Assembly (NCBI GenBank): GCA_046290225.1
Contig: JBKAGE010000062.1
Span: forward strand, 1 to 51,400
Length of the DNA: 51,400 nt
Origin: Bradymonadia bacterium
GTDB lineage: Bacteria > Myxococcota_A > Bradymonadia > UBA7976 > UBA1532
Reading direction: 5' to 3'
In this document: positions 20,443 through 41,051 of the stretch, one piece after another
Numbering within the stretch: the stretch's first letter is position 1
Layout of the letters: every line of letters begins with the position of its first letter
Program-made: the position numbers and the translations under genes
The notes under the pieces: model-generated
What the model saw: the letters and a program-made list of their open reading frames with translations, nothing else
Databases searched by the model: none
What the model was told of the DNA's origin: nothing

Positions 20443-23400
20443 TCAGTCCTGAGCGGGGATGAGGGGGGCTGCGCGCTGGTAGATGACGCGCTCGTACGTC
20501 AGCGAACCGTTGAGGCTACGGTTGGCGCCACAACGGTAGCCGTTGTCGAGGAGGCCGTTCTGCGTGTGCCAGCACAAGCGGCCCTCGTCGTCGGCGCCGT
20601 TGGTGTCGCACGAGCCGCGGCTGAGCTCACCGCCCACAGGACCGAAGCCCCACGAATGATCCGTGCTGTAGTACCAGTTCACGTCGTTGTGCTCGTTGAC
20701 CGGGTTCCGCTCGTTGCCTTGATCAGCGAGCACGAACTCGCGCTCGCCCATGGCGGCCACGCGGAAGGCCGGCTGGCCGATCTCGCGACAGGCCATCAGC
20801 AGGATCTCACCACCACAGTTGGCGAGGATGTCATCCAGGCTGTTGAAGTCGTTGTCGTACAGATCGCGGTGACACTGTACGAACCCGCCAGCGACCACGT
20901 TGACCTCGGCGATATCGTTGCTCGGCCCCGAGAAGTACAGGGTGGGTACGGGCTCGTCATCCCCAGCGACGAGGGGATCTGTGCCCGCCTGCACTTCGAG
21001 GCCGTCGGGGGTACCACCGCCGTCAGTGTCCCGGTTGTTGGGATCAGTGCCTGCTGCGATCTCCTCAGCGTCAGAGAGCAGGTCATAGTCGCTGTCGGTG
21101 ACGTCGGCCCGGGTGCCGAGGTTGAACTCCTCGAGGTTGGTGAGCGTGTCCTCATCGCGATCGCCTGCGGCGTCGTCGACGAGGGGGTCGAGCCTGTTCT
21201 CCACCTCGTAGTCGTCGCTCATCCCGTCGCTGTCGGTGTCGACGAGGGTGGGGTTGGAGCCGTGCACGTTCACCTCGTCGCCATCGCTGAGGTTGTCACC
21301 ATCGCTGTCGATGTCGTTGGGATCCGTGCCTGTCTCCAGCTCAGCGCCGTCCCGCAGGCCGTCATTGTCGGTGTCGGCGTTGATCGGGTCAGTGAAGGGC
21401 TCGACATTGAGCTCGTCGCCGTCAGTGCGGCCGTCGTTGTCCGAATCTGCGCGGCGGGCGAGAGAGCCTGCGGCGAACTCCTCGAGGGTGGTGAGGCCGT
21501 CATTGTCGAAGTCGATCTCCTGCTCGCCTGCGGTGAGCGGATCGAGATCGTTCTCCACCTCGTAGCCATCACTGAGGCCATCGCCGTCGGTGTCGGCGTT
21601 GGCTGGGTCCGTGCCCAAAGCGGCTTCGTCGCCATCGTCGAGGTCGTCGCCGTCGGCGTCAGTGAAGATCGAGAAGTTCACCACATCGGCTCGAAGGTTG
21701 CCGGGGATGCCCAACAGCTCGACGTCAGGCTCGAGCTCGGTGAGCGACTCCACCCGGGCGAGGGCCTCGGCACGGTTGCGGTTCTGGCTGGCGAAGTGCA
21801 TCAGCACCACCCGACCCCCAGCAGGTACCGTGAGCGTGTAACCCCAGGAGAACTCCTCGCCGTTCAGCGCCACCGTGGAGGGGGTCACCGGGGCCTCCGG
21901 GTCAGCGAGGAAGTGCACCATGGAGGGATCGTCGTCGTTGTCCACGTCATCGCTGATGAACCAGGTGTCATTGCCATCGAGCACGTTGTCGCCGCTGCTC
22001 TCGGCCACGAGGACCGTCTCGTCGTCAGAGCCCAGGTCGCCGATCAGCTGCACCGACACCTCGATGTCGGCGTCGGTGGGGTTGGCGATGACCTCGAGGA
22101 ACCGCGCAAAGGCGGAGCCGTTGGCGCTGGGGATGTACACGCGGCGGGTCACTGAGAGATCGCCCATGGCCGCAGGGCCGAAGACCACCTCGCGGCCGAA
22201 GCCTGGTGTGGTCTCTGCGGTGTCGAAGTCGGGGAACTCGATGCCGCCGACGAGCAGCTCCACGCCGTCGTCGTAGGCGTCGTCGGAGCCGTTGTCGATG
22301 CCGCCGTTGCGCTGGATGTCCCACTCGAAGCCCTCGCCGTCGAAGAGCGAGAAGTCGAAGCGATCTACCACCAGGGTCTCATCGAAGCGGTTGAGCGGAT
22401 CAGTGCCATCGGCGATCTCCTGCCCGTCATCGATGCCGCCGTTGTCGGTGTCGGGGTTGCCCGGATCGAGGGGCGGCTCGAGTTGAAGCTCCTCGTTGTC
22501 GCCGAGGCCGTCGCCGTCAGTGTCGGGGTTGTTCGGGTTGAGGCCGAGGTTGAACTCTTCGAGGTTTGTAAGGCCGTCTTCATCGGCGTCGATGGCTGAA
22601 TCGTCGGCGAGCGGATCAAGGCCGAACTCGGCTTCGAACCCATCGGACATCGTGTCACCATCGGTGTCCTCGATGGTGGGATCGGTGAGAAGGATGTACA
22701 GCTCGTCGAAGTCGTTGAGGCCGTCACCATCGGAGTCGCCCTGGGTGGGATCGGTGCCCAAAGCGAGCTCGACGTCGTCATTGATGCGATCGCCATCGGA
22801 GTCGGCGAGGTTGGGGTCGGTGCCCAGCTCAAGTTCTTCGGCCTCGGTGAGGCCGTCGCCGTCGAGGTCGAGATTGGCGTTGGGCATCGTGGGATCAAGG
22901 CCCAGGACGATCTCGCGGAGATCGTTCAGGCCGTCGCCGTCGGTGTCGGCGAGGTTGGGATCAGTGCCGAAGGCGGGCTCGCGATCGTCGTCGATGCCGT
23001 CGCCGTCGGCGTCTTCACCAAACTGCCAGTTCACCACGGTGGCATTTTCCCCGAGATCGACCAGATAGGCCGCGGGGTCCGCGGCGATGGCCGACATGAG
23101 GTCGACGGCCAGCTGTGTGCCGGTTTGCTGAGTGAGGAACCATGCCACGATGCGGGTCTCTCCAGCAGGCACCGTGAAGTTGTAGGTCCAGTCAGGGTTG
23201 TCGTCGTCGAGGAACTGGTTGCGCACGCCGCCCACCGCAGCAAACTCGCCATAGGCATGGCCTACGGTGGGATCACCCCCGGTGGGGCTGTCATCGGTGA
23301 CGAACCAGCTGTCGTCCGAGGATACGATGAGATCGCCGCTTCCAGTGCCATACACCCCAGTGCCGTCATCCGAGCCGAGGTTGCCGCGGTAGTGGAGCTC

Positions 23401-25518
23401 GACCGACTCGGGGACCTGACCGGCGTTCTCGACGCGCTCCACGATGCGGGCGTAGCTGTTGTCCGCCGGTACGGTGATTTCGCGGTACACGCGCAGGTTG
23501 CCGAAGGGCACTGGCCCAAGGATCACCGTGCGGCCGTCTTCGCTCAGCACCGCGTTGCTCTGACCGGGGAAGCCCACCCCATTGACGTCCGGATCTTCGT
23601 GGCCGTCGAAGGCGTCGTCGCCGCCGTCGCTGATCTCACCATCGCTGCGGATGTCCCAGAGCTCGTCGTTGACGTCTCGGAGCTCGATGTTGAACTCGTT
23701 GATGAAGGGAGCCACCGACTCGGGGTCGAGGGGATCGGTGAGATCGAGAACGACCTCCTGGAGGTCGGTACGGCCGTCGTCGTCGGAGTCGGTGAGCTCG
23801 GGGTTGGTGCCCAGCATCGCTTCATCGGCGTCGCTCAGACCGTCGTTGTCCAGATCGAGCACCTCGCACGCGTCGCCCGTGCCGTCACCGTCTTCGTCGA
23901 GCTGCTCGACGTTGGCGATGGAGAAGCAGTTGTCCACGGCGTCACATACGCCGTCTTCATCTTCGTCGGTGAAGACGCTCAGAGCCGAGAAGGTGTTGGT
24001 GCCGCACTGCCGCTCGGCCTCATTGGAGAGACCATCGTCGTCGATGTCGTCATCACAGGTGTCACCGAGGCCGTCGCCGTCGGTGTCGAGCTGGTCGACG
24101 TTGGCCGTCTCGGGGCAGATGTCGCAGGCGTCGCCGAGCGGATCGCCGATGGGCTCGCAGAAGAACGCATAGGTCTGGTCACAGGGGCGATCGTTCCAGC
24201 CGTCCGGCTCGGTGATGACGCAATCGTCGTCGCCATAGTCCGGCTCGTTGCTGTCCCAGGCCTGAGCCACGCCGAGGGGGCGGCCGTCGATCCAGGCGTA
24301 GACCTGCTCGAAGCGCTCGCTGCGCAGGCCGAGCCAGATGTTCTGGCCGTCGGCGGTCTCGATGATGAAGGCCTGCTCCTCGAGGTCGTCCACCACCACG
24401 AGATCGCCGCCGAAGCCCTGGCAGCGGGCCCGTGCTGCGTCGAAGGTGAGCTCTTCTTCGGCACACCGCAGATAAGGTCGACCTGTAGGGCTCTCCAAGA
24501 AGTTGCAGCCTGGGGCGAGCTCAGCACAGGTCTCGACGCTGTCGCACACGAGAGAGGCGCTGAAGTCAGAGTTGAGCTGGTCGTTGTTGGCGATGGTGGG
24601 GCAGTTGTCTTCTGCGTCGACGAAGTCGTCGTTGTCGTCGTTGTCATCGCAGGCATCGCCCATGCCATCGCCGTCCGTATCGAGCTGATCGGCGTTGGCG
24701 ATGGCGGGGCAGTTGTCGCAGACGTCGCCCAGGCCGTCACCGTCACCATCCAACTGCTCCGGATCTGCATCGGCGGGACAGATGTCGAGGGTGTCGCAGA
24801 CGCCATCTTCGTCACCGTCGGCAGGCAGGCTCTCCACCGCCAGCGGATCGCTCCCACAGGCGGTCTCGAGATCGTTGTCGACGCCATCGCCGTCGATGTC
24901 GTCGTCACAGACGTCACCAAAATCATCTTCATCCAGGTTCGCCTGGTCGGCGTTGGCCAGCTCGGCGCAGTTGTCGAGGGCATCGCACGTGCCGTCTTCG
25001 TCGCCGTCGACGGGCACGCTCTGCGGGTCGAACGGATCGCTCCCACACTGGCCTTCGAGGGTGTCGTCGGCGCCATCACCGTCATCATCGTCGTCACAGA
25101 CATCGCCGATGCCGTTCCCGTCGGTGTCCACCTGGCGTGGGTTGTCGTCGGCGGGGCAGTTGTCGCAGGCATCGCCGAAGGCGTCCTGATCGCCGTTGGC
25201 CTGATCCGGGTTTGCTGCGTCGACGCAGTTGTCCACATCGTCACAGATGCCATCTTCATCGGCGTCGCCGGTGCCCTCGCAGGGGTCCACCACCACGCCA
25301 CCCATACCGCCGACTTCACCACCAGCACCGCCGACTTCGCCGCCAGCGCCGCCAACCTCGCCGCCGGCACCACCCATCGAGCCGCCAGCGCCGCCAGTCA
25401 CGCCACCGGCGCCCCCGGTGCCGTCACCACCGTCACTGCCATCGCCGTCGTCACAGGCCGCACCGCCGAGGGCGATGGCCAGGGCCAGTGCGAGGCGCAT
25501 TCGTCGTTCCAGGTACAT
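20443..25518 (-). CDS. Giant Ca-binding TSP3-repeat / C-type lectin surface lipoprotein, paralog 4 (1691 aa)
   Basis: Lipobox LGGAAC; same domain order; lectin domain IWLGL..EPD..DDC..WND; appears the most divergent copy. Confidence 0.9.
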   Translation of the reverse strand: MYLERRMRLALALAIALGGAACDDGDGSDGGDGTGGAGGVTGGAGGSMGGAGGEVGGAGGEVGGAGGEVGGMGGVVVDPCEGTGDADEDGICDDVDNCVDAANPDQANGDQDAFGDACDNCPADDNPRQVDTDGNGIGDVCDDDDDGDGADDTLEGQCGSDPFDPQSVPVDGDEDGTCDALDNCAELANADQANLDEDDFGDVCDDDIDGDGVDNDLETACGSDPLAVESLPADGDEDGVCDTLDICPADADPEQLDGDGDGLGDVCDNCPAIANADQLDTDGDGMGDACDDNDDNDDFVDAEDNCPTIANNDQLNSDFSASLVCDSVETCAELAPGCNFLESPTGRPYLRCAEEELTFDAARARCQGFGGDLVVVDDLEEQAFIIETADGQNIWLGLRSERFEQVYAWIDGRPLGVAQAWDSNEPDYGDDDCVITEPDGWNDRPCDQTYAFFCEPIGDPLGDACDICPETANVDQLDTDGDGLGDTCDDDIDDDGLSNEAERQCGTNTFSALSVFTDEDEDGVCDAVDNCFSIANVEQLDEDGDGTGDACEVLDLDNDGLSDADEAMLGTNPELTDSDDDGRTDLQEVVLDLTDPLDPESVAPFINEFNIELRDVNDELWDIRSDGEISDGGDDAFDGHEDPDVNGVGFPGQSNAVLSEDGRTVILGPVPFGNLRVYREITVPADNSYARIVERVENAGQVPESVELHYRGNLGSDDGTGVYGTGSGDLIVSSDDSWFVTDDSPTGGDPTVGHAYGEFAAVGGVRNQFLDDDNPDWTYNFTVPAGETRIVAWFLTQQTGTQLAVDLMSAIAADPAAYLVDLGENATVVNWQFGEDADGDGIDDDREPAFGTDPNLADTDGDGLNDLREIVLGLDPTMPNANLDLDGDGLTEAEELELGTDPNLADSDGDRINDDVELALGTDPTQGDSDGDGLNDFDELYILLTDPTIEDTDGDTMSDGFEAEFGLDPLADDSAIDADEDGLTNLEEFNLGLNPNNPDTDGDGLGDNEELQLEPPLDPGNPDTDNGGIDDGQEIADGTDPLNRFDETLVVDRFDFSLFDGEGFEWDIQRNGGIDNGSDDAYDDGVELLVGGIEFPDFDTAETTPGFGREVVFGPAAMGDLSVTRRVYIPSANGSAFARFLEVIANPTDADIEVSVQLIGDLGSDDETVLVAESSGDNVLDGNDTWFISDDVDNDDDPSMVHFLADPEAPVTPSTVALNGEEFSWGYTLTVPAGGRVVLMHFASQNRNRAEALARVESLTELEPDVELLGIPGNLRADVVNFSIFTDADGDDLDDGDEAALGTDPANADTDGDGLSDGYEVENDLDPLTAGEQEIDFDNDGLTTLEEFAAGSLARRADSDNDGRTDGDELNVEPFTDPINADTDNDGLRDGAELETGTDPNDIDSDGDNLSDGDEVNVHGSNPTLVDTDSDGMSDDYEVENRLDPLVDDAAGDRDEDTLTNLEEFNLGTRADVTDSDYDLLSDAEEIAAGTDPNNRDTDGGGTPDGLEVQAGTDPLVAGDDEPVPTLYFSGPSNDIAEVNVVAGGFVQCHRDLYDNDFNSLDDILANCGGEILLMACREIGQPAFRVAAMGEREFVLADQGNERNPVNEHNDVNWYYSTDHSWGFGPVGGELSRGSCDTNGADDEGRLCWHTQNGLLDNGYRCGANRSLNGSLTYERVIYQRAAPLIPAQD

Positions 25519-28455: not shown

Positions 28456-29019
28456 ATGCCCCACCCGATGTTGACCCGGATTTTGACCGCCATGGCCGGT
28501 GGCGGCGTGATGCTCGCCGGCTGTATTGCCGACCCCCAAGGCCTCGAGGACGCAGAGGTGCCGTTGCCCGACGGCACGATGCGGTTTGCCGAAGACGCTG
28601 ATCTGACGCAGGACGCCCGGGTCGAGCCGCCGCCATTGCCCGACATGATGGTGCCCGATGGTGAGCCGCCAGTGTCCACCGTCGATGCCACCGTAGATGT
28701 GGACGCAGAGACACCCCCACCACCGCCTGTCATGGGTTCATATGTGTGCGAGTCGGACTGGGCAGAATGCTATGACCCGCCCCCCGGCGAGCCGTGCCCT
28801 GATCTGGCGAACGATCACAGCTACGAGACGATGGTCTCGGTGCTCGACGCCCTCGGCTACCAGGACGACGGCTGTCTTTGGGCCTGGGGGCCGTGCAATC
28901 CCGAGGGCATGCCTGCCCGCTGTTGTTACGAGGTGGACTTCGGATGTGAAGGTCGCCCCTTCCATGTAGAGGCCGAAATGCGCAAAGCTGCCCCGACACA
29001 CCGGACGGACTGGGTGTAG
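28456..29019 (+). CDS. Cys-rich putative lipoprotein with C-terminal GRPF...HRTDWV tail (partner 1 of ferritin-like protein)
   Basis: ATG 28456 after GGAGA; lipobox LAGC; Pro/acidic linker; 8-Cys domain ending CCYEVDFGCEGRPF; tail shared with next gene. Confidence 0.8.
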   Translation: MPHPMLTRILTAMAGGGVMLAGCIADPQGLEDAEVPLPDGTMRFAEDADLTQDARVEPPPLPDMMVPDGEPPVSTVDATVDVDAETPPPPPVMGSYVCESDWAECYDPPPGEPCPDLANDHSYETMVSVLDALGYQDDGCLWAWGPCNPEGMPARCCYEVDFGCEGRPFHVEAEMRKAAPTHRTDWV

Positions 29020-29036
29020 AGCAGAAAGGCGGCGCG

Positions 29037-29501
29037 ATGGCTTCTGAAGGGTTGAGCAGGCGGGTGATGCAGGCGATTCAGCTGGGGGCAGCCCTCGCCA
29101 TGGTGCCCGCTGTGGGGTGTGGTGGGGGCACGGCAGAGACAACACCTCCATCAGACGATACCGCCCTGAAGCCTGTGGAGACGCCCAAAGAAGCAGACAC
29201 ATCACAGGCGTGGGCATGGAGCAATGGTCAGGTGTGCACCCCTGGCCCGGTCTGTGTCGAGGTCGACGCTGGCACAGAATGCCCGACCCACCTCGAGGCC
29301 TGTGAGCAGCTGGTGAAGGCACAGGATCCTGCGAGTGAGCAATGTGCGCCGCGAATGACCGGTGCGTGTATGAGCGCCGGTGAGTCGAAGACTTCGTGCT
29401 GTTATGCCGAGGTAGAGCTCCGGGTGATCATCGGTCGCCCCTTCACGGTGTACGACCTTGCCCGTACTGCCCCTGCTGCCCATCGAACTGACTGGGTGTA
29501 A
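29037..29501 (+). CDS. Cys-rich putative lipoprotein with C-terminal GRPF...HRTDWV tail (partner 2)
   Basis: Signal-like N-terminus with lipobox AVGC; 8-Cys domain ending CCYAEV..IIGRPF; 22-aa tail of identical length ending HRTDWV. Confidence 0.82.
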   Translation: MASEGLSRRVMQAIQLGAALAMVPAVGCGGGTAETTPPSDDTALKPVETPKEADTSQAWAWSNGQVCTPGPVCVEVDAGTECPTHLEACEQLVKAQDPASEQCAPRMTGACMSAGESKTSCCYAEVELRVIIGRPFTVYDLARTAPAAHRTDWV

Positions 29502-29545
29502 GGCCCGGGCATCACGGCGTCTCGTGCACCGATAGAACGACTGAA

Positions 29546-30244
29546 ATGGAGCCTCTGATGCAGACCGAGACCGCCATGGAGCATATGCCCGAACACGTTC
29601 GCGCGCGCCTCGCCGAGGGCTGGCTGGAGACTGCCCTGGCAGAGCACGCCTCGGTGGCGTCGTTTGCGCGGTTCACCCTGCACCTGCTCGCTGCTGGCGC
29701 GCCCCCACACTTGCTCGAGGCGTCCCATCAGGCGGGCCTTGACGAGATCAAGCACGCCCGGGCCTGCTTCAAGCTCGCCGCACGCTACCGCGGTGAGGCC
29801 ATGGGTCCTGGCCCCTTGCCCATGAGTGGTGACGTGCTCGGGCCCACCGATTTGCCCAGCCTCACGGCGGCGGCGGTCATCGAGGGGTGCGTCGGCGAGA
29901 CTCTCTCGGCCCTCGAGGCCGCCGAGGCCGCTCAGATCGCCACGGACGCTGAGGTGAAGTCGGTGCTCGTGGACATCGCCGAGGAAGAAGGCCGTCACGC
30001 AGAGCTGGCCTGGGCCTTCGTCACCTGGGCGGTGCAGCAGGGAGGAGAGGCCACCCGCAGCGCGGTGACGCGGGCCTTTGCGGAGTGTGAGCAGAAGCAC
30101 AAGATGGCCATCTGCCCCGAGCAGGATCCAGATGCAGACTGGTTGCACGCCCATGGCCACGTCACTGATCGCATGCGCTTCGAGGTGCGGGTGAGAGGGT
30201 GGCGAGAGGTGGTTCAACCTGGCCGAGCGGCGCTGCTGGGTTGA
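29546..30244 (+). CDS. Stand-alone ferritin-like (four-helix di-iron carboxylate) domain protein
   Basis: EHASVASF ... DEIKHA ... EGCVGETL ... EEGRHAELAW gives the E/ExxH/E/ExxH di-metal ligand pattern; no signal peptide; start could be 29546, 29558 or later. Confidence 0.88.
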   Translation: MEPLMQTETAMEHMPEHVRARLAEGWLETALAEHASVASFARFTLHLLAAGAPPHLLEASHQAGLDEIKHARACFKLAARYRGEAMGPGPLPMSGDVLGPTDLPSLTAAAVIEGCVGETLSALEAAEAAQIATDAEVKSVLVDIAEEEGRHAELAWAFVTWAVQQGGEATRSAVTRAFAECEQKHKMAICPEQDPDADWLHAHGHVTDRMRFEVRVRGWREVVQPGRAALLG

Positions 30245-30355
30245 GCGACTGGGCTAGGCCTACACGACAAGGCGCTGTGAGCGCGCATCACAGGTGCACA
30301 TAAAGAATTGTGAAGCCTGCGCCACCTTGTGTGTCGTCTCGTTATCTTCCCCTCC

Positions 30356-31531
30356 ATGAAGCACCACACACTGGCCACGATGCTCTGCGCATTGGTGGCG
30401 TCCACCGGGGCTCGGGGTCAGACAGCGACAACGCAGGCTGCACCTCCAGCGCCGACGACCGAGCCATCACCCACACCTGCCGAGACGGCACCCTCCATCT
30501 CAGAGGAGGTGCCCCCAGCACCTGTCGAAGAGAGTCCGCTCTCTCCAGGGCCTCTCTCGGTGGGGGCAGCGATCATTCCCGGTGTGCTGATCCACGGCGC
30601 AGGTACGTATGTCGCTGGGGACACTGAGGGCGCCAAGACTCTGCTCTATGCCGAGGGCGTAGGCTTGGGCCTCTTGCTCATCGGGGCCAGTGGCCTTGCC
30701 CTTACTGGAGCCTCTCGTCGGGTCTCCGGCCCTCTGGGTTATATGACTGGGGGGGGCGCAGGTCTCTTCGTCGGATCGTGGATCGCCGACATCTATGGCG
30801 CGGCCACAGGGGGGCGAGAGGCCATCCCAGGTGGCAGCCTGCCGACGCTGCAGCTCGCCGCTGGCTGGCGCTATGTCTACGATCCGCAGTTCGAGTATCG
30901 ACAGTTTGCCCATCTCGATGGCCAGTGGCGCTTGGGTGAGACGGCCTTGGACGCCACGATCTGGCAGGCCGTGGATGATGGCAACCTGAGGGTATCTGGT
31001 GGTGTGTCTCACCGAATCCTCGGTGACCTCCACAATCGACAGAGCGGCAGCTTTTTCGACGCCCGTGGGGGTGTCATCTGGCACGACTATGACACTGAGG
31101 GCTTCTCGGTGCTCACCTTCGAGGGCAGCCTCGACGGGCGCTACGATTTGGGTGATATGGCACGATCTCTCAAAGGGGCCTTCGTCGAAGGCGGGATCGG
31201 CTGGGCCCTTGAGTTCTACGACTACGATATACCTGGCGTTGAGCTCGGCGAAGACACCTTCGATCAGCTGCTCATGCGCTTCGAACTCGGCACTTACCTC
31301 GCTTCAGATAACCCATATGGGGGCGAAGTGAGCGTGTACTACGATCATCGCAAAGACGACTTCGCCGCGGGCTACAGCTTCGACGGTATAGGCGTGGGCG
31401 CCGTGGGCTCTGTGGGCCTCGCCGGGGTGTTGCCCCTCACTGAGACTCTGGCCCTCGATCTCGACGCTCAATACGGATCGGCGGTCATCGTTGGCGCCAG
31501 CATCCGCTATCGCACGGGGGTGGCTCGATGA
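30356..31531 (+). CDS. Exported hypothetical protein, possible outer-membrane beta-barrel
   Basis: Signal peptide MKHHTLATMLCALVASTGARG; Pro/Thr linker; hydrophobic hairpin; C-terminal region of alternating beta-strand pattern ending VGASIRY; ATGA overlap with next gene. Confidence 0.65.
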   Translation: MKHHTLATMLCALVASTGARGQTATTQAAPPAPTTEPSPTPAETAPSISEEVPPAPVEESPLSPGPLSVGAAIIPGVLIHGAGTYVAGDTEGAKTLLYAEGVGLGLLLIGASGLALTGASRRVSGPLGYMTGGGAGLFVGSWIADIYGAATGGREAIPGGSLPTLQLAAGWRYVYDPQFEYRQFAHLDGQWRLGETALDATIWQAVDDGNLRVSGGVSHRILGDLHNRQSGSFFDARGGVIWHDYDTEGFSVLTFEGSLDGRYDLGDMARSLKGAFVEGGIGWALEFYDYDIPGVELGEDTFDQLLMRFELGTYLASDNPYGGEVSVYYDHRKDDFAAGYSFDGIGVGAVGSVGLAGVLPLTETLALDLDAQYGSAVIVGASIRYRTGVAR

Positions 31532-32619
31532 TGCTCAAGTACACCACGTTGATCGGTCTCGTGATCGCCCTTTCGGGGTGTCTGCGCCCCGGTGAAGATC
31601 GCGCCCGCCTCGACCTCACGATCGGCAAGGCCTCTGAAGAGGGGCTCACGATCGACGTAGACCAAGGCCACGCTGCGGTGCGTTCGCTCACCTCTGGCGA
31701 GGTGGAGTTGTGGGCCCAGGCGCCAGTGCTCACCATGGAGCTTCAGGCCGAGGTAGACGGCGAGTGGCGCATCACATTGCTCAACGGCATGGCTGCGTCG
31801 GTGCTCGAAGGCGCCGACGGGCAAGGCCCTGTGGAGGTCTCGCGCCTTGAGCAGCCCCGACCCACGGCGCAGGTCTGGTCAGTGACGCTGAGGGCTGGAG
31901 AAGTCACCACCTTGCGCTATGCACCCCCTGGGGCAGATGAGGAGATGCCCTTTCGATATGCTGTGCTCAGCGACATTCAGAGAGCCGTCGACGATGTCGG
32001 TGAGATCTTCACACGCATGAACGAAGACGAGACGTTGCTGTTCGTGGTCTCAGCTGGTGACCTCGTATCGCAAGGGCATGGCAGCGAGCTGCGGCGGTTC
32101 CAGCGAGAGATGGAAGCCCTCAACATTCCCCTCTACGCCACGCCAGGGAATCACGAGCGCGGTGTAGATGAGATCCCCTGGTCACAGATCTTCGGCCGGG
32201 GCAGCTTCAACTGGCAGTTCCAGGGGGCGTGTTTCACCTTCGCCGACTCGAGCGCCGCCACCATCGACCCCATGGTGTACGACTGGATGCAGGGCTGGCT
32301 CGACAGCTGCCGAGAGCGATCTCATGCGTTCTTGACCCATGTGCCGCCCATCGACCCCGTGGGTGCCCGCAGCGGTGGTTGGCGCAGCCGCAAAGAGGCG
32401 GCGAAGCTGTTCACCATGCTCGGTCGGGGCAAGGTCGACGTGGCGTATTATGGCCACGTGCACTCGTTCTACAGCTTCTCCAACGGCACTGTGGACGCCT
32501 TCATCAGCGGAGGTGGCGGGGCGATCCCCGAGCGCCTCGACGGCATCGGGCGTCACTACCTCGTGGTTGAGACCGATCACACCAGGGTTCGGCAGGTGGG
32601 TGTGGTGCGCGTAGACTGA
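31528..32619 (+). CDS. Calcineurin-like metallophosphoesterase, putative lipoprotein
   Basis: Lipobox LSGC; motifs SDIQ, AGDL, PGNHE, THVP, GHVH. Confidence 0.88.
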   Translation: MMLKYTTLIGLVIALSGCLRPGEDRARLDLTIGKASEEGLTIDVDQGHAAVRSLTSGEVELWAQAPVLTMELQAEVDGEWRITLLNGMAASVLEGADGQGPVEVSRLEQPRPTAQVWSVTLRAGEVTTLRYAPPGADEEMPFRYAVLSDIQRAVDDVGEIFTRMNEDETLLFVVSAGDLVSQGHGSELRRFQREMEALNIPLYATPGNHERGVDEIPWSQIFGRGSFNWQFQGACFTFADSSAATIDPMVYDWMQGWLDSCRERSHAFLTHVPPIDPVGARSGGWRSRKEAAKLFTMLGRGKVDVAYYGHVHSFYSFSNGTVDAFISGGGGAIPERLDGIGRHYLVVETDHTRVRQVGVVRVD

Positions 32620-36116: not shown

Positions 36117-39100
36117 ATGAAGCAGTGTGTGTGGGCGTGGCTGTGCCTGAGTCTGGGCCTGATGCCGGCGTTGTGGGGCTGCGACAGCAGCGTAGATGCA
36201 GACAATCCGTGTGATCCGGAGTCTGCAGAGGCGGCGCAGGCTCGGGTCGTGGTTCGGGGTCGGCTCATTGCCCCAGAGGGTGATCCGCAAGCCCTGGTTG
36301 AGGGGATGGCGATCACGCTCACCGCTGTGGGTGAGGACGACGCCACACAGACTCAGATGGCGGATGCGGATGGCGCCTTCAGTTTCGACGCGGTGGTGTC
36401 CGGGGACTGGCTGCTCGAGGCCCAAGGCGGCGAGCTGTATCTGCCTCGTGTGCCCTTCAGCGTAAACGCGTGCCAGCCAGCAGATTTGGGTTTGATGCAG
36501 ACCGCGCGGCGTCCTATTGAGGGGGCGCTCTCTGGCACAGCGCAGCTGATGTCAGCAGGGGAGCAGAGCCACGGTGGAATCCTGGTTGCGGTGCGTGGCG
36601 GCCTGGCCCAGACCCGCACGCTCACTGATGGCAGCTTCACGTTGCAGCTGCCCCACGGACGCCACGACATCGAGTTCAGCTATCCTGGCTACGCCACTGA
36701 GGTGGTGGCTGGGGTGAACGTTGAAGCAGCCACCACGCTGGACGCCCCTGTGGTGCTCAACAGCCGCCCTGTCCGGATGGTGGGTCGAGTGACCCTTGAG
36801 GGGCTTGAGAGCGCGGAGCGCACGGCGACGACGGGTGTGCTGTTGATCCGCGATGGTGTCGAGCGCCAAGTGACAGTGGGTGATCAAGGCCGCGTCGCTG
36901 CTGACGACTTATCTCCAGGCGTATACACCCTCGTGGCCAGCCGCCCAGGTTATCGCTCGGTGGAGCGTAGCTTCCAGGGCGCACCTGGTGGGTTCGAAGA
37001 TGTGGGCCTGTTGGTGTTGCGCCATCACGCGCTCACGGGTGACGCGGTGCCTTTCCGCGGTCGTGTGCAATCGGTGGGCGCTGCAAGCCAGGCTGGTGTA
37101 GAGGTGACTGTACGCCTCGCAGGCTCGGAGCTGGTGCTGGGTCGCACGATCACCGATGCCAATGGTGACTTCACTGTGCTGGCGTCTCCTGATGAGTCAT
37201 ATGTATTCACCGCTGATCGCCCTGACTATGTGCCGTTCACCGCGCGGGAGCCCTTCGCCTGGGATGCAGAGCGTATGGCCTTCGTCGACGCTGCAGGACG
37301 CACGCCCAAGGCTGATCTGCTCGCAGAGGATCCGCGGGGGAGCGTGACCTTCGATGTGGCTGTAGGGCCTGAGTGGCTGCCTCTGGAGGCCCGCACGGCT
37401 CGGGTGTTGGTGCAGCGCGAGGGCGAGGTGCTGCCCGAGCTGGTGGGCGCCGATGGCCAGCGTATCCGTGTGGACAACCTGCAGCCGGGTAGCTACCGCC
37501 TAGTGGTGGGCCGCCCCGGGTTCACTGGCGCCGAGGCTGAGTTCGAGGTGGTGAACGCCCCTGATGGTCTGAACGTGGTTCTCGACGAGACGCTGTCGAT
37601 CCGACTGAGCAACCTGACAGCCTCGGGCATCGAGTTGGGGCAAGTGGTGCAGGCTGAGTGGTTCGAGGGGGTCGAGGTTGCAGGGGCGACACTCTCCCGC
37701 CGCACGCTGGTGGGTGACTTTGGTGGGTTGGATCTCACCGGGGTGCGCCTGCCCGACTCTGATCTGACGCAGGCGAGCTTCGACGGAGCGCTGATGTCCG
37801 AGGCTGATTTGAGCCGGGTGGTGGCCACGGGGTCGAGCTTTGTTGGGGCTGAGCTGACGGGCGCGCTCTTTGCCGGTGCTCGGCTCGAGGGGTCACGTTT
37901 TCATTGCGCTGAGCGTCTCGGGGACGGCCGCTGTGGGTGTCTTGAGGGCGCCGAAGCATGTGTGACTTCGCTCATGGGGGCGTCTTTCGACAACGCGTTG
38001 CTGCTCGGGGCCGATTTCTCAGGGGCGCTGCTGGATGAGGGGCAGTTCACAGGGGCGATCTTCGGGCTGTCGGGCGAGGGGGTGGCGCTGTCGCCGCCGT
38101 TGGGTTGCGATCTACCGCTGTCGTGCCGCTGGGATACGCTGGAGGCGTGTGAAGAAGAGCTTCCGGAGGGCTGTCGCGGAGTGCCTACACGCTTCACGGG
38201 GGCATCGATGGTCCGAGCGACGATGCCTGGGGCGGTGCTGGAGCACGTGGATTTCTCGGATGCTGATCTGCACCAAGCAAACCTGAACAACGCGACGATT
38301 ACGTTCAATACGCACTTGCGTCGGGCTGACTTGACCGGTGCGCAGCTGCGGGTGGCCCGGCTGAATGGTGCTGATCTGCGCGAGGCGACGCTGGTGGAGG
38401 CGGTGCTGAATGATGCGGATTTGACTGGGGCGGATTTGTCGGCGGTGGATGCGAAACGGGCTGTGTTGCAGGGGGCGGATCTGAGCCGCACGGTGTTGCG
38501 TCATACCTTGCTGCAGGGCGCTGACCTGCGCAGTATCGTGTTCGCGCCAGAGGCTGCAGCAGGTGCTGACCTGGCCGAGGCCGATATGCGGGAAGCGGTG
38601 TTGGTGAGCCGGGCAGAGATTGGGCCACTGGTGCTTGATGGCGCGCGACTCGAAGGCGCTCGCATGGAGGGTATCTTTTGGGGTTGGTCGTTCCGAGGCA
38701 TTCAGGGCCGTGGCCTTGAGACCCAGAATGGCACGATGCAGCTCGTGGCCTGCGACTTCAGCGACGCTGATCTGACCGAGGCGGTCTTCACATTGGGTGG
38801 CCAGGGCGATCGAGTGACCGCCATGGAGAGCACACGTTTTGATGGCGCCGATCTCACCGATGCAAGCATGTTGACGGTGGCAGGCATTCTTCAGCCGAGG
38901 CTCGGGTTTGAGCAACGTCATCGACGAGACAGTTGTATGCCCCTAGAGAGCCAGATTGCGAACCGTGGCACCTTACCGTGGATACGTTGGACGTCATTCA
39001 GCGGCGCCAACCTCGATCGGTTCACTTTCTCTGGCTTCGACTTTATGGGTGATATGAGCCAAGTTGCCTCTGCTGAGGACGCCACCCTGAACGGAAACTA

Positions 39101-41051
39101 TTTCCATAGAACCAACTTCGATGACAGCCGCTTCGACCGGGCACACATGGGCTTCAATCAGTGGGAGGCCTCCAGTGCCCGGCGTGCGAGCTTCGCCGGC
39201 GCTCACTTCGAGCACAGCAGCTGGATGGTGGTTGACGCTCGAGACGCCGGCTTCCAAGGCGCCGACATGAACACCTTCAGAATCCACCAGTCGATGTTCA
39301 TGGGGGCCAACCTAAACAACGCGCGTTGGGCGGGAACCTGCGTCAGTCTCAGCTCGTTCTACAACGCCAGCCTGCGCGGGGTAGGGCCTGGGGTTTGGAC
39401 TTCGCTGATCAGTACCGATGTCGTTGGTGCTGACTTTACTGGGGCCCGATTTGAATTCTTGACCAATCTGGCCACTGAGTTCAGTGAGGAGCAGCTTGGG
39501 CTGATCGAAGAGATGATCATCAACATCGATGAAGGTGATCACCGTATCTACAACCGCCAGGACATGAGAGAGAGCTTTGTGCCTAATCTGGGGCAACAGG
39601 CCCTCGACATCTGTGCCACTGGTGGCTCTTGCCACGAGATGGCGGCCTCGTGTGCGCCCTACGAAGACGAGGTGCACTTCTCGTGTCAGGACATGACTTG
39701 CCAGCTCTTGCTCAATGGAGGCTGCGACAACCCTGAGGCCTTCTTTGGCGAGGGGCTCAACCTCGACTTCTGCGACGTCATCCCCCAAGATCCGAGCTTG
39801 TTGGTGGACACCTGCGACATGTATGAGGGGGCGGTCTTCATCGGTGCCAACCTAGAGGGCGTAGATGCCATCGAGTCCGACTTTTTTCAGGTGAACTTCA
39901 ACCGCGCCAATTTGAGGGGCATGGTCTTTCCCTTTGACCAGAACTCAAGTTTGCAGACCTTTATCGGCGCGGATCTGACTGAGGCGAGGATCGTGCCTGA
40001 GGAAGGTATCGTAGGTTTTGACGCCTTCGGCCGTGACACCCACTTGCTGGTGGACACCGTGCTCGATGGCGTCGACCTCCAGCGGTTGGACGCAGGGCTT
40101 TGGTACCTGGACCCTGCCTCTATGGAGGGCATGGTGGCTGAGCACATCAGCTTCGTCAGCAGCTTCCTCACGGGGGTGGGGCTTGACGTCTTGCATACGA
40201 ACACTCGCCTGCTGAACACCTACGCTGTAGGCGCGGATCTGTCAGATCACGAGGGTCCAATTCAGCTAAGGGCTCACGAGAGCAATCTTGAAGCCCTCAA
40301 CGTGGCCGGCGCCCAGCTCAACGACAACACGAGCATCTCCCGCTCAAACCTAGCCGCTTTACGCGCTGATGGTGCCCGAGCGAATCGCTTTGCTGCGCCT
40401 TTCAGCAATCTCGACAGTGCCAGCCTCGTCGGGGCGCAGATGCCTGACATCAACATCGAGGCAGCTTCAGGCTGGGACATTAACCTCGCGGATGCTGATT
40501 GGTCGCGTGCCTACATTGATCGAGCCACCTTGGGTCGAGTGAGCGCTGTTGGGGCCAACCTGAGTGCGGTGGATTTTCATAGAGCGCAGATTACATTCAC
40601 CAGCCTCGAAGGGGCCAACCTTACCGGAGCAGATCTACGCGGTTTGGATCTCAGCAACATCACGATGGTGGGCGCAGAGATGATGGGCGTACAGGCGAGT
40701 GGCGCGTTGTTGAATGGTGCCGAGTTGAATGGCGCTGAGCTGTCTGAGGGCGACTTCGACAGTGCCATGCTCTCGGGGGCAGATCTCAGCGACACGGTGA
40801 TGTCGGGCGCTCGGTTCGACCGGGCCCGCCTCATGGGTGTTGATATGAGCAGAGCAGTCGTGGGTGATGCGTCTTTTACCTGGGCAGATCTCTCTGGTGC
40901 TGATCTCGCGGGTATCGATTTGCGTCAAGCCACCCTGAGTCACGCGCGTCTTGCCGACGCTGATCTCACCGGCGCCCAGATTTGCCGCTCTCAACTTGCC
41001 AGCGCCAATACTGGTGACTGGAGCGAGGCCACCATCGACGAGGGCTGTTGA
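36117..41051 (+). CDS. Giant pentapeptide-repeat lipoprotein with N-terminal carboxypeptidase-regulatory-like (beta-sandwich) domains, 1644 aa
   Basis: Lipobox LWGC, DNPCDP; repeated T..DGxFxF / PGxYxL..xRPGY beta-sandwich units; long A(D/N)LxG pentapeptide tracts (ADLTGADLSAVD, ANLTGADLRGLDLS) interrupted by Cys-rich inserts. Confidence 0.88.
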   Translation: MKQCVWAWLCLSLGLMPALWGCDSSVDADNPCDPESAEAAQARVVVRGRLIAPEGDPQALVEGMAITLTAVGEDDATQTQMADADGAFSFDAVVSGDWLLEAQGGELYLPRVPFSVNACQPADLGLMQTARRPIEGALSGTAQLMSAGEQSHGGILVAVRGGLAQTRTLTDGSFTLQLPHGRHDIEFSYPGYATEVVAGVNVEAATTLDAPVVLNSRPVRMVGRVTLEGLESAERTATTGVLLIRDGVERQVTVGDQGRVAADDLSPGVYTLVASRPGYRSVERSFQGAPGGFEDVGLLVLRHHALTGDAVPFRGRVQSVGAASQAGVEVTVRLAGSELVLGRTITDANGDFTVLASPDESYVFTADRPDYVPFTAREPFAWDAERMAFVDAAGRTPKADLLAEDPRGSVTFDVAVGPEWLPLEARTARVLVQREGEVLPELVGADGQRIRVDNLQPGSYRLVVGRPGFTGAEAEFEVVNAPDGLNVVLDETLSIRLSNLTASGIELGQVVQAEWFEGVEVAGATLSRRTLVGDFGGLDLTGVRLPDSDLTQASFDGALMSEADLSRVVATGSSFVGAELTGALFAGARLEGSRFHCAERLGDGRCGCLEGAEACVTSLMGASFDNALLLGADFSGALLDEGQFTGAIFGLSGEGVALSPPLGCDLPLSCRWDTLEACEEELPEGCRGVPTRFTGASMVRATMPGAVLEHVDFSDADLHQANLNNATITFNTHLRRADLTGAQLRVARLNGADLREATLVEAVLNDADLTGADLSAVDAKRAVLQGADLSRTVLRHTLLQGADLRSIVFAPEAAAGADLAEADMREAVLVSRAEIGPLVLDGARLEGARMEGIFWGWSFRGIQGRGLETQNGTMQLVACDFSDADLTEAVFTLGGQGDRVTAMESTRFDGADLTDASMLTVAGILQPRLGFEQRHRRDSCMPLESQIANRGTLPWIRWTSFSGANLDRFTFSGFDFMGDMSQVASAEDATLNGNYFHRTNFDDSRFDRAHMGFNQWEASSARRASFAGAHFEHSSWMVVDARDAGFQGADMNTFRIHQSMFMGANLNNARWAGTCVSLSSFYNASLRGVGPGVWTSLISTDVVGADFTGARFEFLTNLATEFSEEQLGLIEEMIINIDEGDHRIYNRQDMRESFVPNLGQQALDICATGGSCHEMAASCAPYEDEVHFSCQDMTCQLLLNGGCDNPEAFFGEGLNLDFCDVIPQDPSLLVDTCDMYEGAVFIGANLEGVDAIESDFFQVNFNRANLRGMVFPFDQNSSLQTFIGADLTEARIVPEEGIVGFDAFGRDTHLLVDTVLDGVDLQRLDAGLWYLDPASMEGMVAEHISFVSSFLTGVGLDVLHTNTRLLNTYAVGADLSDHEGPIQLRAHESNLEALNVAGAQLNDNTSISRSNLAALRADGARANRFAAPFSNLDSASLVGAQMPDINIEAASGWDINLADADWSRAYIDRATLGRVSAVGANLSAVDFHRAQITFTSLEGANLTGADLRGLDLSNITMVGAEMMGVQASGALLNGAELNGAELSEGDFDSAMLSGADLSDTVMSGARFDRARLMGVDMSRAVVGDASFTWADLSGADLAGIDLRQATLSHARLADADLTGAQICRSQLASANTGDWSEATIDEGC

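Follow-up and report, generated by a model that had tools for sequence, protein, structure and literature searches.

A split ferritin-like di-iron protein and four lipoproteins with a common C-terminal tag point to possible undescribed chemical processing before export in a Bradymonadia bacterium

The window, which is the whole stretch of 51,400 nucleotides (nt) analyzed here (Bradymonadia bacterium, contig JBKAGE010000062.1, assembly GCA_046290225.1), contains at positions 28456..30244 three open reading frames (ORFs) that encode two Cys-rich lipoproteins with related C-terminal tags and a ferritin-like di-metal protein, referred to below as the enzyme. Together with two further tagged lipoproteins of the same genome, this split enzyme points to an undescribed form of chemical processing before export, in which the tag would serve for docking. 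The features of the locus are as follows.

28456..29019, + strand: tagged lipoprotein 1 (gene 1), 187 amino acids (aa), with leader/signal, lipobox Cys23, Pro/Asp-rich linker, 8-Cys domain and tag (ORF call)
28456..28524, + strand: signal peptide 1, whose last residue is lipobox Cys23 and whose motif is of the LxxR[IL]L type (leader-matrix rank 4 of 1048)
28951..29019, + strand: C-terminal tag 1, 22 aa, GRPF-x13-RxDW-x, TAG stop (ORF and tail alignment; stop present in contigs of two runs)
29037..29501, + strand: tagged lipoprotein 2 (gene 2), 154 aa, with signal, lipobox Cys28, short linker, 8-Cys domain and tag (ORF call)
29037..29120, + strand: signal peptide 2, whose last residue is lipobox Cys28 and whose leader motif is degenerate (leader-matrix rank 84 of 1048)
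29433..29501, + strand: C-terminal tag 2, 22 aa, TAA stop (ORF and tail alignment)
29502..29545, no strand: spacer of 44 nt between gene 2 and the enzyme ORF; the distance from the tag Trp to E33 is 149 nt (49.67 codons; fused homologues, 24 to 45 codons, median 30, n = 186)
29546..30244, + strand: ferritin-like di-metal protein, 232 aa, signal-less and tag-less, likely start at 29558 (ORF, AlphaFold2 [AF2] model and fold matches)
29642..29998, + strand: metal-ligand codons E33 (29642), E67 (29744), H70 (29753), E118 (29897), E148 (29987) and H151 (29996), with conserved C115 (29888) (domain alignment)
29804..29818, + strand: GPGPL loop after helix 2, predicted dock of the C-terminal half of the tag (13/14 split enzymes; covariation and AF2 strands)

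A BLASTP comparison of genes 1 and 2 aligned only their last 46 aa. The two 22-aa tails were identical at 13 of 22 residues and 40 of 66 nt, and 6 of the 13 shared residues were specified by different codons, which bears out the proposal of an earlier note on this DNA that the tails are conserved at the protein level. The same note had described an 8-Cys domain ending in CCY in both proteins. Eight Cys residues are indeed present in each in addition to the lipobox-like Cys (C23 and C28), but the eighth Cys of gene 1 (C164) lies past CCY, 2 residues ahead of GRP, where gene 2 has no Cys. The third ORF was correctly described as signal-less, out of frame with gene 2 and complete in its ligands (E33, E67/H70, E118 and E148/H151); its true start is probably 29558, which has a Shine-Dalgarno-like GGAG and matches the 228-aa database call. 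Short contigs from two independent marine runs confirmed the gene 1 stop; those of neither run covered the gene 2/enzyme junction. An orthologue of gene 1 (P0142) was 66% identical and terminated at the same residue, with a passenger domain (the part ahead of the tag) at least as conserved as the tag. Searches of Pfam and NCBIfam detected no family above the cut-off for any of the three proteins, and an Atlas search with lipoprotein 1 gave no score of 0.9 and no TM score above 0.32. A promoter search at the locus found none and returned one terminator-like match, at chance level, and no RNA data set containing this DNA was listed.

A six-frame scan of the whole host genome (8.58 Mb, 83 contigs) for CC[YF]..GRP[FLY] produced exactly four matches; in each, the tail was the same and the stop came one residue past the Trp, and the tag is therefore more than a chance resemblance. 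The two extra lipoprotein-like ORFs, on C56 (9960-10625) and C77 (2006-2458), have no adjoining enzyme. Signal peptidase II-type signals and lipobox Cys residues are present in the precursors at the pattern level, and the genome encodes Lgt twice as well as TatC. The only other close ferritin-like domain of the genome, on C6, is fused after a predicted beta-barrel and has its own G-R-P junction; four free tags are thus available to one tag-less enzyme. This agrees with the earlier suggestion of one enzyme with several tagged partners, and remote partner loci were found in other genomes too. The C6 barrel-domain fusion (L003 2147-3349; G000:C6:7146-8348) follows closely downstream of a suf operon for Fe-S assembly, which was named by eye.

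Many of the 120 homologues listed consisted of one chain carrying a signal, a variable passenger, GRP..RxDW and the ferritin-like domain, and these listings, with comparisons of the passengers, established the existence of the fused family that the earlier note had described. A profile search recovered 11,533, 9,756 and 3,932 clusters at 50% identity (E values of ≤0.001, ≤1e-10 and ≤1e-30, respectively), among which some distant matches may be other ferritin-like proteins; the named members belong to the Myxococcota. The passengers are unrelated to one another (Cys-rich domains of small or large size, domains resembling beta-barrels, membrane helices and simple linkers), yet each joins the domain at G-R-P or R-R-P. 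CCY, near which the earlier note placed a modification, was missing from beta-barrel, membrane-helix and Cys-free passengers, and the invariant element was R-P. The number of Cys residues past the lipobox was even in 49 of 50 fused passengers, which suggests disulfide-bonded products that mature in an oxidizing compartment after export. A C74-C226 disulfide confined to fused enzymes was considered (69/127 fused versus 4/43 tag-less proteins) and was dropped on a covariation rank of 17,718. No description of the enzyme family was found in open-access papers, a search whose scope stopped short of the supplementary precursor lists of PMC13056109.

The distribution of free tags was examined in 41 relatives and in phylum samples of 301 and 401 genomes, with 6 to 150 candidates scored per genome, and the counts are lower bounds. 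At least 22 distinct free tags were detected in 15 genomes of four families, all spanning 21 aa from G to W. The stop lay one residue past the Trp in 13/13 free tags of the host's family and 2 to 15 residues past it in the others. In 14 of these 15 genomes a tag-less enzyme was detected; free tags and stand-alone enzymes hence co-occur elsewhere, as had been proposed. All 18 matches to a tag profile among longer database proteins ended at DW plus 1 to 2 residues, of which three came from the host genome, some repeated surveyed loci and one was the gene 1 orthologue. As anticipated, the tag occurs both fused N-terminal to ferritin-like domains and free at C termini. An exact DNA pattern of tag plus stop gave 59 matches in Joint Genome Institute (JGI) metagenomes, none of them real (0/59; no upstream CCY and no enzyme), and a related-locus search of GTDB genomes returned one irrelevant locus only. 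Two tandem free-tag proteins of a larger Cys-rich type, with near-identical 3' ends, were observed at L189 728-1755 (G241:C76).

The order passenger-enzyme was present in 11 genomes, often with overlapping stop and start codons. The enzyme preceded the passenger in genome G004, the pair was convergent in G014, and in G134 the genes lay inside different contigs. Five remote passengers were detected in all, and G004, G287 and G134 were among the genomes that had them. The distance from the Trp to the first ligand was 24 to 45 codons in 186 fused proteins, 49.67 codons here and, at 11 split loci, 62 to 168 nt in all three frames. A FastTree phylogeny of 126 of 168 domains (the 42 dropped were 33 randomly chosen fused and 9 partial domains) placed 12/12 split enzymes in one clade, with a support of 0.98, nested among fused proteins; this clade also included one fused protein and one group of enzymes with their own tag. 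An assembly frameshift or a decaying fusion, with gene 1 as a broken duplicate, would account for the gene 2-enzyme order, which equals the fused order, and the junction is outside the available contigs and reads. The spacing here is, however, longer than in any of the fused proteins, the distances at split loci fall in all three frames, and reversed, convergent and unlinked layouts occur; moreover, 13/13 family tags stop one residue past the Trp, and gene 1, a decayed duplicate under this reading, has an intact orthologue (66% identity). Comparison across split loci thus refuted this reading, which we consider extremely improbable, and these sequence comparisons indicate that the split is evolved and not an assembly indel, as the earlier note had maintained.

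The AF2 model of the stand-alone enzyme was a confident helical bundle, with a predicted local distance difference test (pLDDT) value of 95.8. The closest folds were PaaC (Z, 16.3; root mean square deviation [rmsd], 3.2; 187 residues aligned), aldehyde-deformylating oxygenase (ADO; Z, 15.5; rmsd, 3.3; 182 residues) and R2lox (Z, 14.1; rmsd, 3.6; 205 residues), with AurF/CmlI at a Z of 10 to 11; values of 14 to 16 are not high for helical bundles, and function cannot be read from a fold. Atlas structure matches also included acyl-ACP desaturase and MiaE. A Foldseek search with the enzyme gave no match at an E value of ≤0.001, and a sequence search of the PDB returned nothing informative. The six ligands (E, ExxH, E, ExxH) were kept in 76/76 aligned domains, a set gathered by the family profile and hence partly circular, and a Cys one turn ahead of E118 (C115) was kept in 62/76. 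This is the ligand set of ferritin-like di-iron oxidases, as set out in PMC13061610. All 14 split enzymes start 19 to 40 aa before the first ligand and lack a hydrophobic signal. The window enzyme had no match to Pfam AurF, and Pfam and NCBIfam named none of 20 relatives save one fused homologue (Phenol_Hydrox, 26.1 bits versus a cut-off of 24.4, with no single stretch passing).

Iron storage or detoxification by a ferritin or rubrerythrin, with incidental neighbors, could draw on a Rubrerythrin match below its cut-off (19.6 versus 22.8 bits) and encapsulin-cargo matches far below theirs (TIGR04535, 15.8 versus 125; NF058679, 14.8 versus 90). The enzyme reached no curated cut-off for ferritin, bacterioferritin, Dps, rubrerythrin or encapsulin cargo. 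Furthermore, its 232-aa domain has extra helices and matches PaaC, ADO and R2lox at a Z of 14 to 16 compared with ≤12 for Dps and bacterioferritin, and its pairing with tagged exported proteins is strict, which makes a storage role very improbable. In the model, the fold stands nearer to di-iron enzymes that activate O2 than to ferritins of the storage type, and the earlier view that this is not an iron-storage protein was upheld.

A second conserved element, overlooked in the earlier note, was found in the signal peptides, which share L-R-x-R-[LI]-L-x-A-[LAI]-G. The seed of a leader matrix consisted of 52 fused proteins from other organisms, and the matrix was tested on 1048 lipoprotein-like N termini of the host genome. 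Scores above 6 were obtained for 62.5% of 96 non-seed family members versus 153/1048 host N termini, and the four tagged proteins ranked 1, 2, 4 and 84 of 1048. The leader is not a twin-arginine motif, as x is Arg in 17/112 sequences; RR is present in gene 2 and the C56 protein and absent from gene 1 and the C77 protein. Two earlier controls were discarded, one giving 0/394 with a lipobox pattern that was biased and missed positives and the other giving 3/5 matches in 737 with a pattern tuned on the same proteins. As judged from these alignments, LxxR[IL]L is a family-specific signal-peptide motif new to this work.

Contacts of the two precursor ends were examined in a natural fused homologue (P0051). 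Its AF2 model, from 59 rows, had a predicted template modeling score of 0.80 although its linker was disordered; residues 1 to 20 had a pLDDT of ~86, the tag formed a hairpin, and short strands were predicted at 149-150 and 238-239 that were absent from the stand-alone model. Rigid superpositions on 7 of the 50 listed structures started at model residues 1 to 20, the ranges giving end points only. Mean-field covariation, weak and uncorrected for phylogeny, was computed from 191 and 112 sequences. The covarying pairs between tag and domain were D148-G240, R152-G238, D154-P205 and G135-A271, and those between leader and domain were the Arg with E303, the first Leu with I216 and the fifth position with Q213. 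E303 corresponds to E153 of the window enzyme and was kept in 12/14 split enzymes, and the GPGP loop was kept in 13/14. Where Arg replaces the Gly before R-P, residue 271, which lies a single turn away from the third Glu ligand, was Gly in 32/32. The model and covariation suggest that the signal helix and the tag both dock on the enzyme, with a tentative pairing of the individual elements.

The best reading of these results, which we judge about evenly poised between right and wrong, is that the enzyme acts in the cytoplasm as a maturase, holding the precursor at its two ends and oxidizing or cleaving it near G-R-P. Homology shows an ancestral gene with signal, passenger, tag and ferritin-like di-iron domain in one chain. 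One ancient fission introduced a stop just past the Trp of the tag, leaving the tag with the passenger, and the freed, signal-less and hence cytoplasmic enzyme would serve several lipoproteins, presumably all four in the host genome. It would hold the unexported precursor by the signal helix (LxxR[IL]L, with the Arg possibly facing E153 of helix 4) and by the tag hairpin on the GPGP loop, an arrangement that may bring the surroundings of G-R-P beside helix 3 and the metal site. O2 would then be used for oxidation at the G-R-P junction. The single likeliest reaction would be an oxidative cut of the backbone at the residue preceding R-P, with a cross-link or Cys modification nearly as likely. 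Cleavage would free the passenger from the tag and, in fused proteins, from the folded enzyme for general secretory (Sec) export, lipidation and disulfide formation. Since the signal helix can be contacted only before it is cleaved off and the split enzyme is signal-less, contact is most simply cytoplasmic and post-translational. A folded fused domain would block Sec export unless it is cut off or unfolded, and this block, cytoplasmic contact and maturation after export together favor oxidation at G-R-P.

Retention and release of the precursor by an export gate or chaperone, in which the domain holds signal and tag and releases them in response to iron, O2 or redox state, would involve no covalent change. 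The predicted docking of the signal helix, the lack of a nearby reductase and the top fold match to PaaC fit such a gate. It is nevertheless unlikely, since ligands invariant in 76/76 domains, together with the conserved Cys one turn away from E118, are in keeping with catalysis and since a fused, folded gate would still need to be unfolded or cut for Sec.

Several observations weigh against a maturase. PaaC, the best fold match, is a non-catalytic subunit. Genome G241 (91% complete, with the genes near a contig end) had two free tags and no close enzyme, and ~15/38 distant loci (see below) had no recognizable partner. Leader scores were below 4 in 6/15 free passengers, and the leader motif therefore drifts; the covariation was shallow (effective depths of 170 and 101), and the G135-A271 signal reflects a change in one clade. 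No recurrent reductase, protease or transporter was detected among 75 neighbors scanned at split loci, where neighboring genes are not conserved. The passenger in 12/46 fused members had 0 to 2 Cys residues and was merely a disordered linker, tether-like rather than product-like. A subclade of stand-alone enzymes (13 database entries) carries its own tag behind 2 to 13 residues, with no passenger, and no tagged neighbor was found at two such loci, L235 (G146:C47) and L236 (G005:C103), so that the tag may belong to the structure of the enzyme itself. Linker-only passengers and own-tag enzymes fit a pure follower-peptide and maturase picture badly and, with the lack of a conserved accessory gene, lend support to an oxidase tethered as two chains.

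Such a membrane-tethered oxidase, rebuilt from two chains, would use its di-iron domain on a lipid or small molecule, with the passengers as anchors (four interchangeable ones here), the tag as a structural piece and the stable heterodimer exported by hitchhiking on the Tat (twin-arginine translocation) pathway. Every passenger type is envelope bound, the linker-only passengers and own-tag enzymes fit, the closest folds handle acyl chains (ADO, R2lox and acyl-ACP desaturase), and stop/start overlaps in several genomes suggest 1:1 expression. TatC is encoded, and hitchhiker export is known (PMC4273604). This main rival remains an unlikely explanation, if a substantial one, because the leader is RxR and not RR, the enzyme-docking signal helix would be lost to signal peptidase before the enzyme acts outside, distant families keep partners with different tags that look substrate-like, the gene 1 passenger is at least as conserved as the tag in the orthologue, and the disulfide sought in fused enzyme domains was unsupported.

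Distant paralogues showed related arrangements. An adjoining secreted protein with a family-specific Cys-Gly/Pro tag was found at 13 of 38 distant loci (WGPP, 5; CAVPG, 3; CNPPP, 3; CAPEG, 2); among the others were one similar tag, seen by eye, 4 GRRP fusions and ~5 GRP fusions. The WGPP, CAVPG and CAPEG partners had conserved signal motifs of their own. The host genome has three distant paralogues (C9, C10 and C82), with one pair each of the WGPP, CAVPG and CNPPP types; these loci (L156 2063-3345, G000:C82; L157 1517-3141, G000:C9; L158 1941-3194, G000:C10) encode a distant enzyme and a secreted partner, whose tag is of the WGPP, CAVPG or repeated CNPPPP kind. A tentative and rather doubtful extension of the maturase reading is that the Myxococcota ferritin-like superfamily, with thousands of members, is a self-processing module in which the signal would act as leader and the C-terminal Cys-Gly/Pro tag as follower, with an oxidative cut or modification before export in cis (self-cutting) or in trans and with GRP, WGPP, CAVPG, CNPPPP, CAPEG and GRRP as family-specific leader/tag codes.

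The system was compared with known ones. It resembles DAG-RiPPs (RiPP-lipoprotein hybrids; DybH/DybA, PMC13056109), in which a signal-less non-heme iron enzyme lies beside a lipoprotein with a variable N-terminal body, recognizes a C-terminal motif and acts in the cytoplasm before export, as proposed here; cytoplasmic iron enzymes that modify C-terminal motifs of lipoproteins are a precedent for a maturase. Their enzyme is, however, an MNIO (TIM barrel) with a CPACGMG motif, in contrast to the four-helix bundle, 21-aa GRP..W tag, fused ancestors and signal motif seen here. The word "ferritin" is absent from the main text of PMC13056109, and at our locus no match to DUF692 (MNIO) and no CPACGMG-type motif was detected. 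Bufferins (PMC11626156) are likewise small, Cys-containing exported proteins with a Sec signal and are modified by an iron enzyme, but through an MNIO and a DUF2063 partner, with a dispensable signal peptide and no comparable fused form. Borosins (10.1101/2021.12.24.474128) include enzyme-substrate fusions and split versions with a docking element on the precursor; theirs is an S-adenosylmethionine (SAM)-dependent N-methyltransferase with a five-helix binding domain, of another fold and with another tag. The BURP peptide cyclases (PMC12186524) are metal-dependent oxidative enzymes found joined to, or separate from, a secreted precursor that bears a recognition sequence, but are plant dicopper enzymes of unrelated fold that act on multi-core peptides. 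No N-methyltransferase or BURP catalytic domain was detected by Pfam, and only the fused/split logic is common. Ferritin-like di-iron oxidases and oxygenases (AurF, CmlI and Dob3, PMC13061610; PaaC, ADO and R2lox by fold) share the fold and six ligands at 13 to 16% identity, with known members acting on small molecules, lipids or carrier-bound groups, and none with a tagged exported partner was found described in the open-access literature. Tat hitchhikers (PaoABC, PMC4273604) also combine a signal-less subunit with a signal-bearing one encoded together, but the twin-arginine motif is lacking here. By analogy, the system would work like DAG-RiPP biosynthesis and shares the fused/split logic of borosins and BURP cyclases, and it is a member of none of these groups.

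Neither Pfam nor NCBIfam has a model for this large family, whose members are annotated as "ferritin-like" or hypothetical. One 232-aa enzyme and four small candidate substrates of a single genome, together with fused controls, are provided by the natural split for a clean experiment. If the partners are modified or cleaved, this would be a new enzyme fold for protein or peptide maturation chemistry, with a portable 22-aa tag; a two-chain tethered oxidase, too, would be an envelope system not described before, and its export signal would be unusual. Self-processing, if true, would mean that a ribosomal protein backbone is the target of a ferritin-like enzyme, and self-cleavage would be categorically new.

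Further observations concerned related and neighboring genes. Other passenger-less enzymes with their own tag were P0006, P0009, P0011, P0013 and P0022-P0024, and the L236 enzyme had a leader-like stretch 12 to 13 residues ahead of GRP, with no lipobox. Directly 3' of one split enzyme (L196 4068-6273, G002:C431) lie a small protein with two AWGLGCG repeats and then a radical SAM gene, which may form a RiPP pair. Downstream of the locus in the window, positions 30329-32619 (+) encode an outer-membrane-like protein with no family match and a lipoprotein metallophosphoesterase, which are not conserved at other split loci. A lipoprotein of 1691 aa at 20443-25518 (-) has, by eye, numerous repeats that are Asp-rich and Ca-binding-like as well as a segment resembling a lectin, and another of 1644 aa at 36117-41051 (+) has several beta-sandwich-like domains followed by long pentapeptide-like repeats, also by eye.

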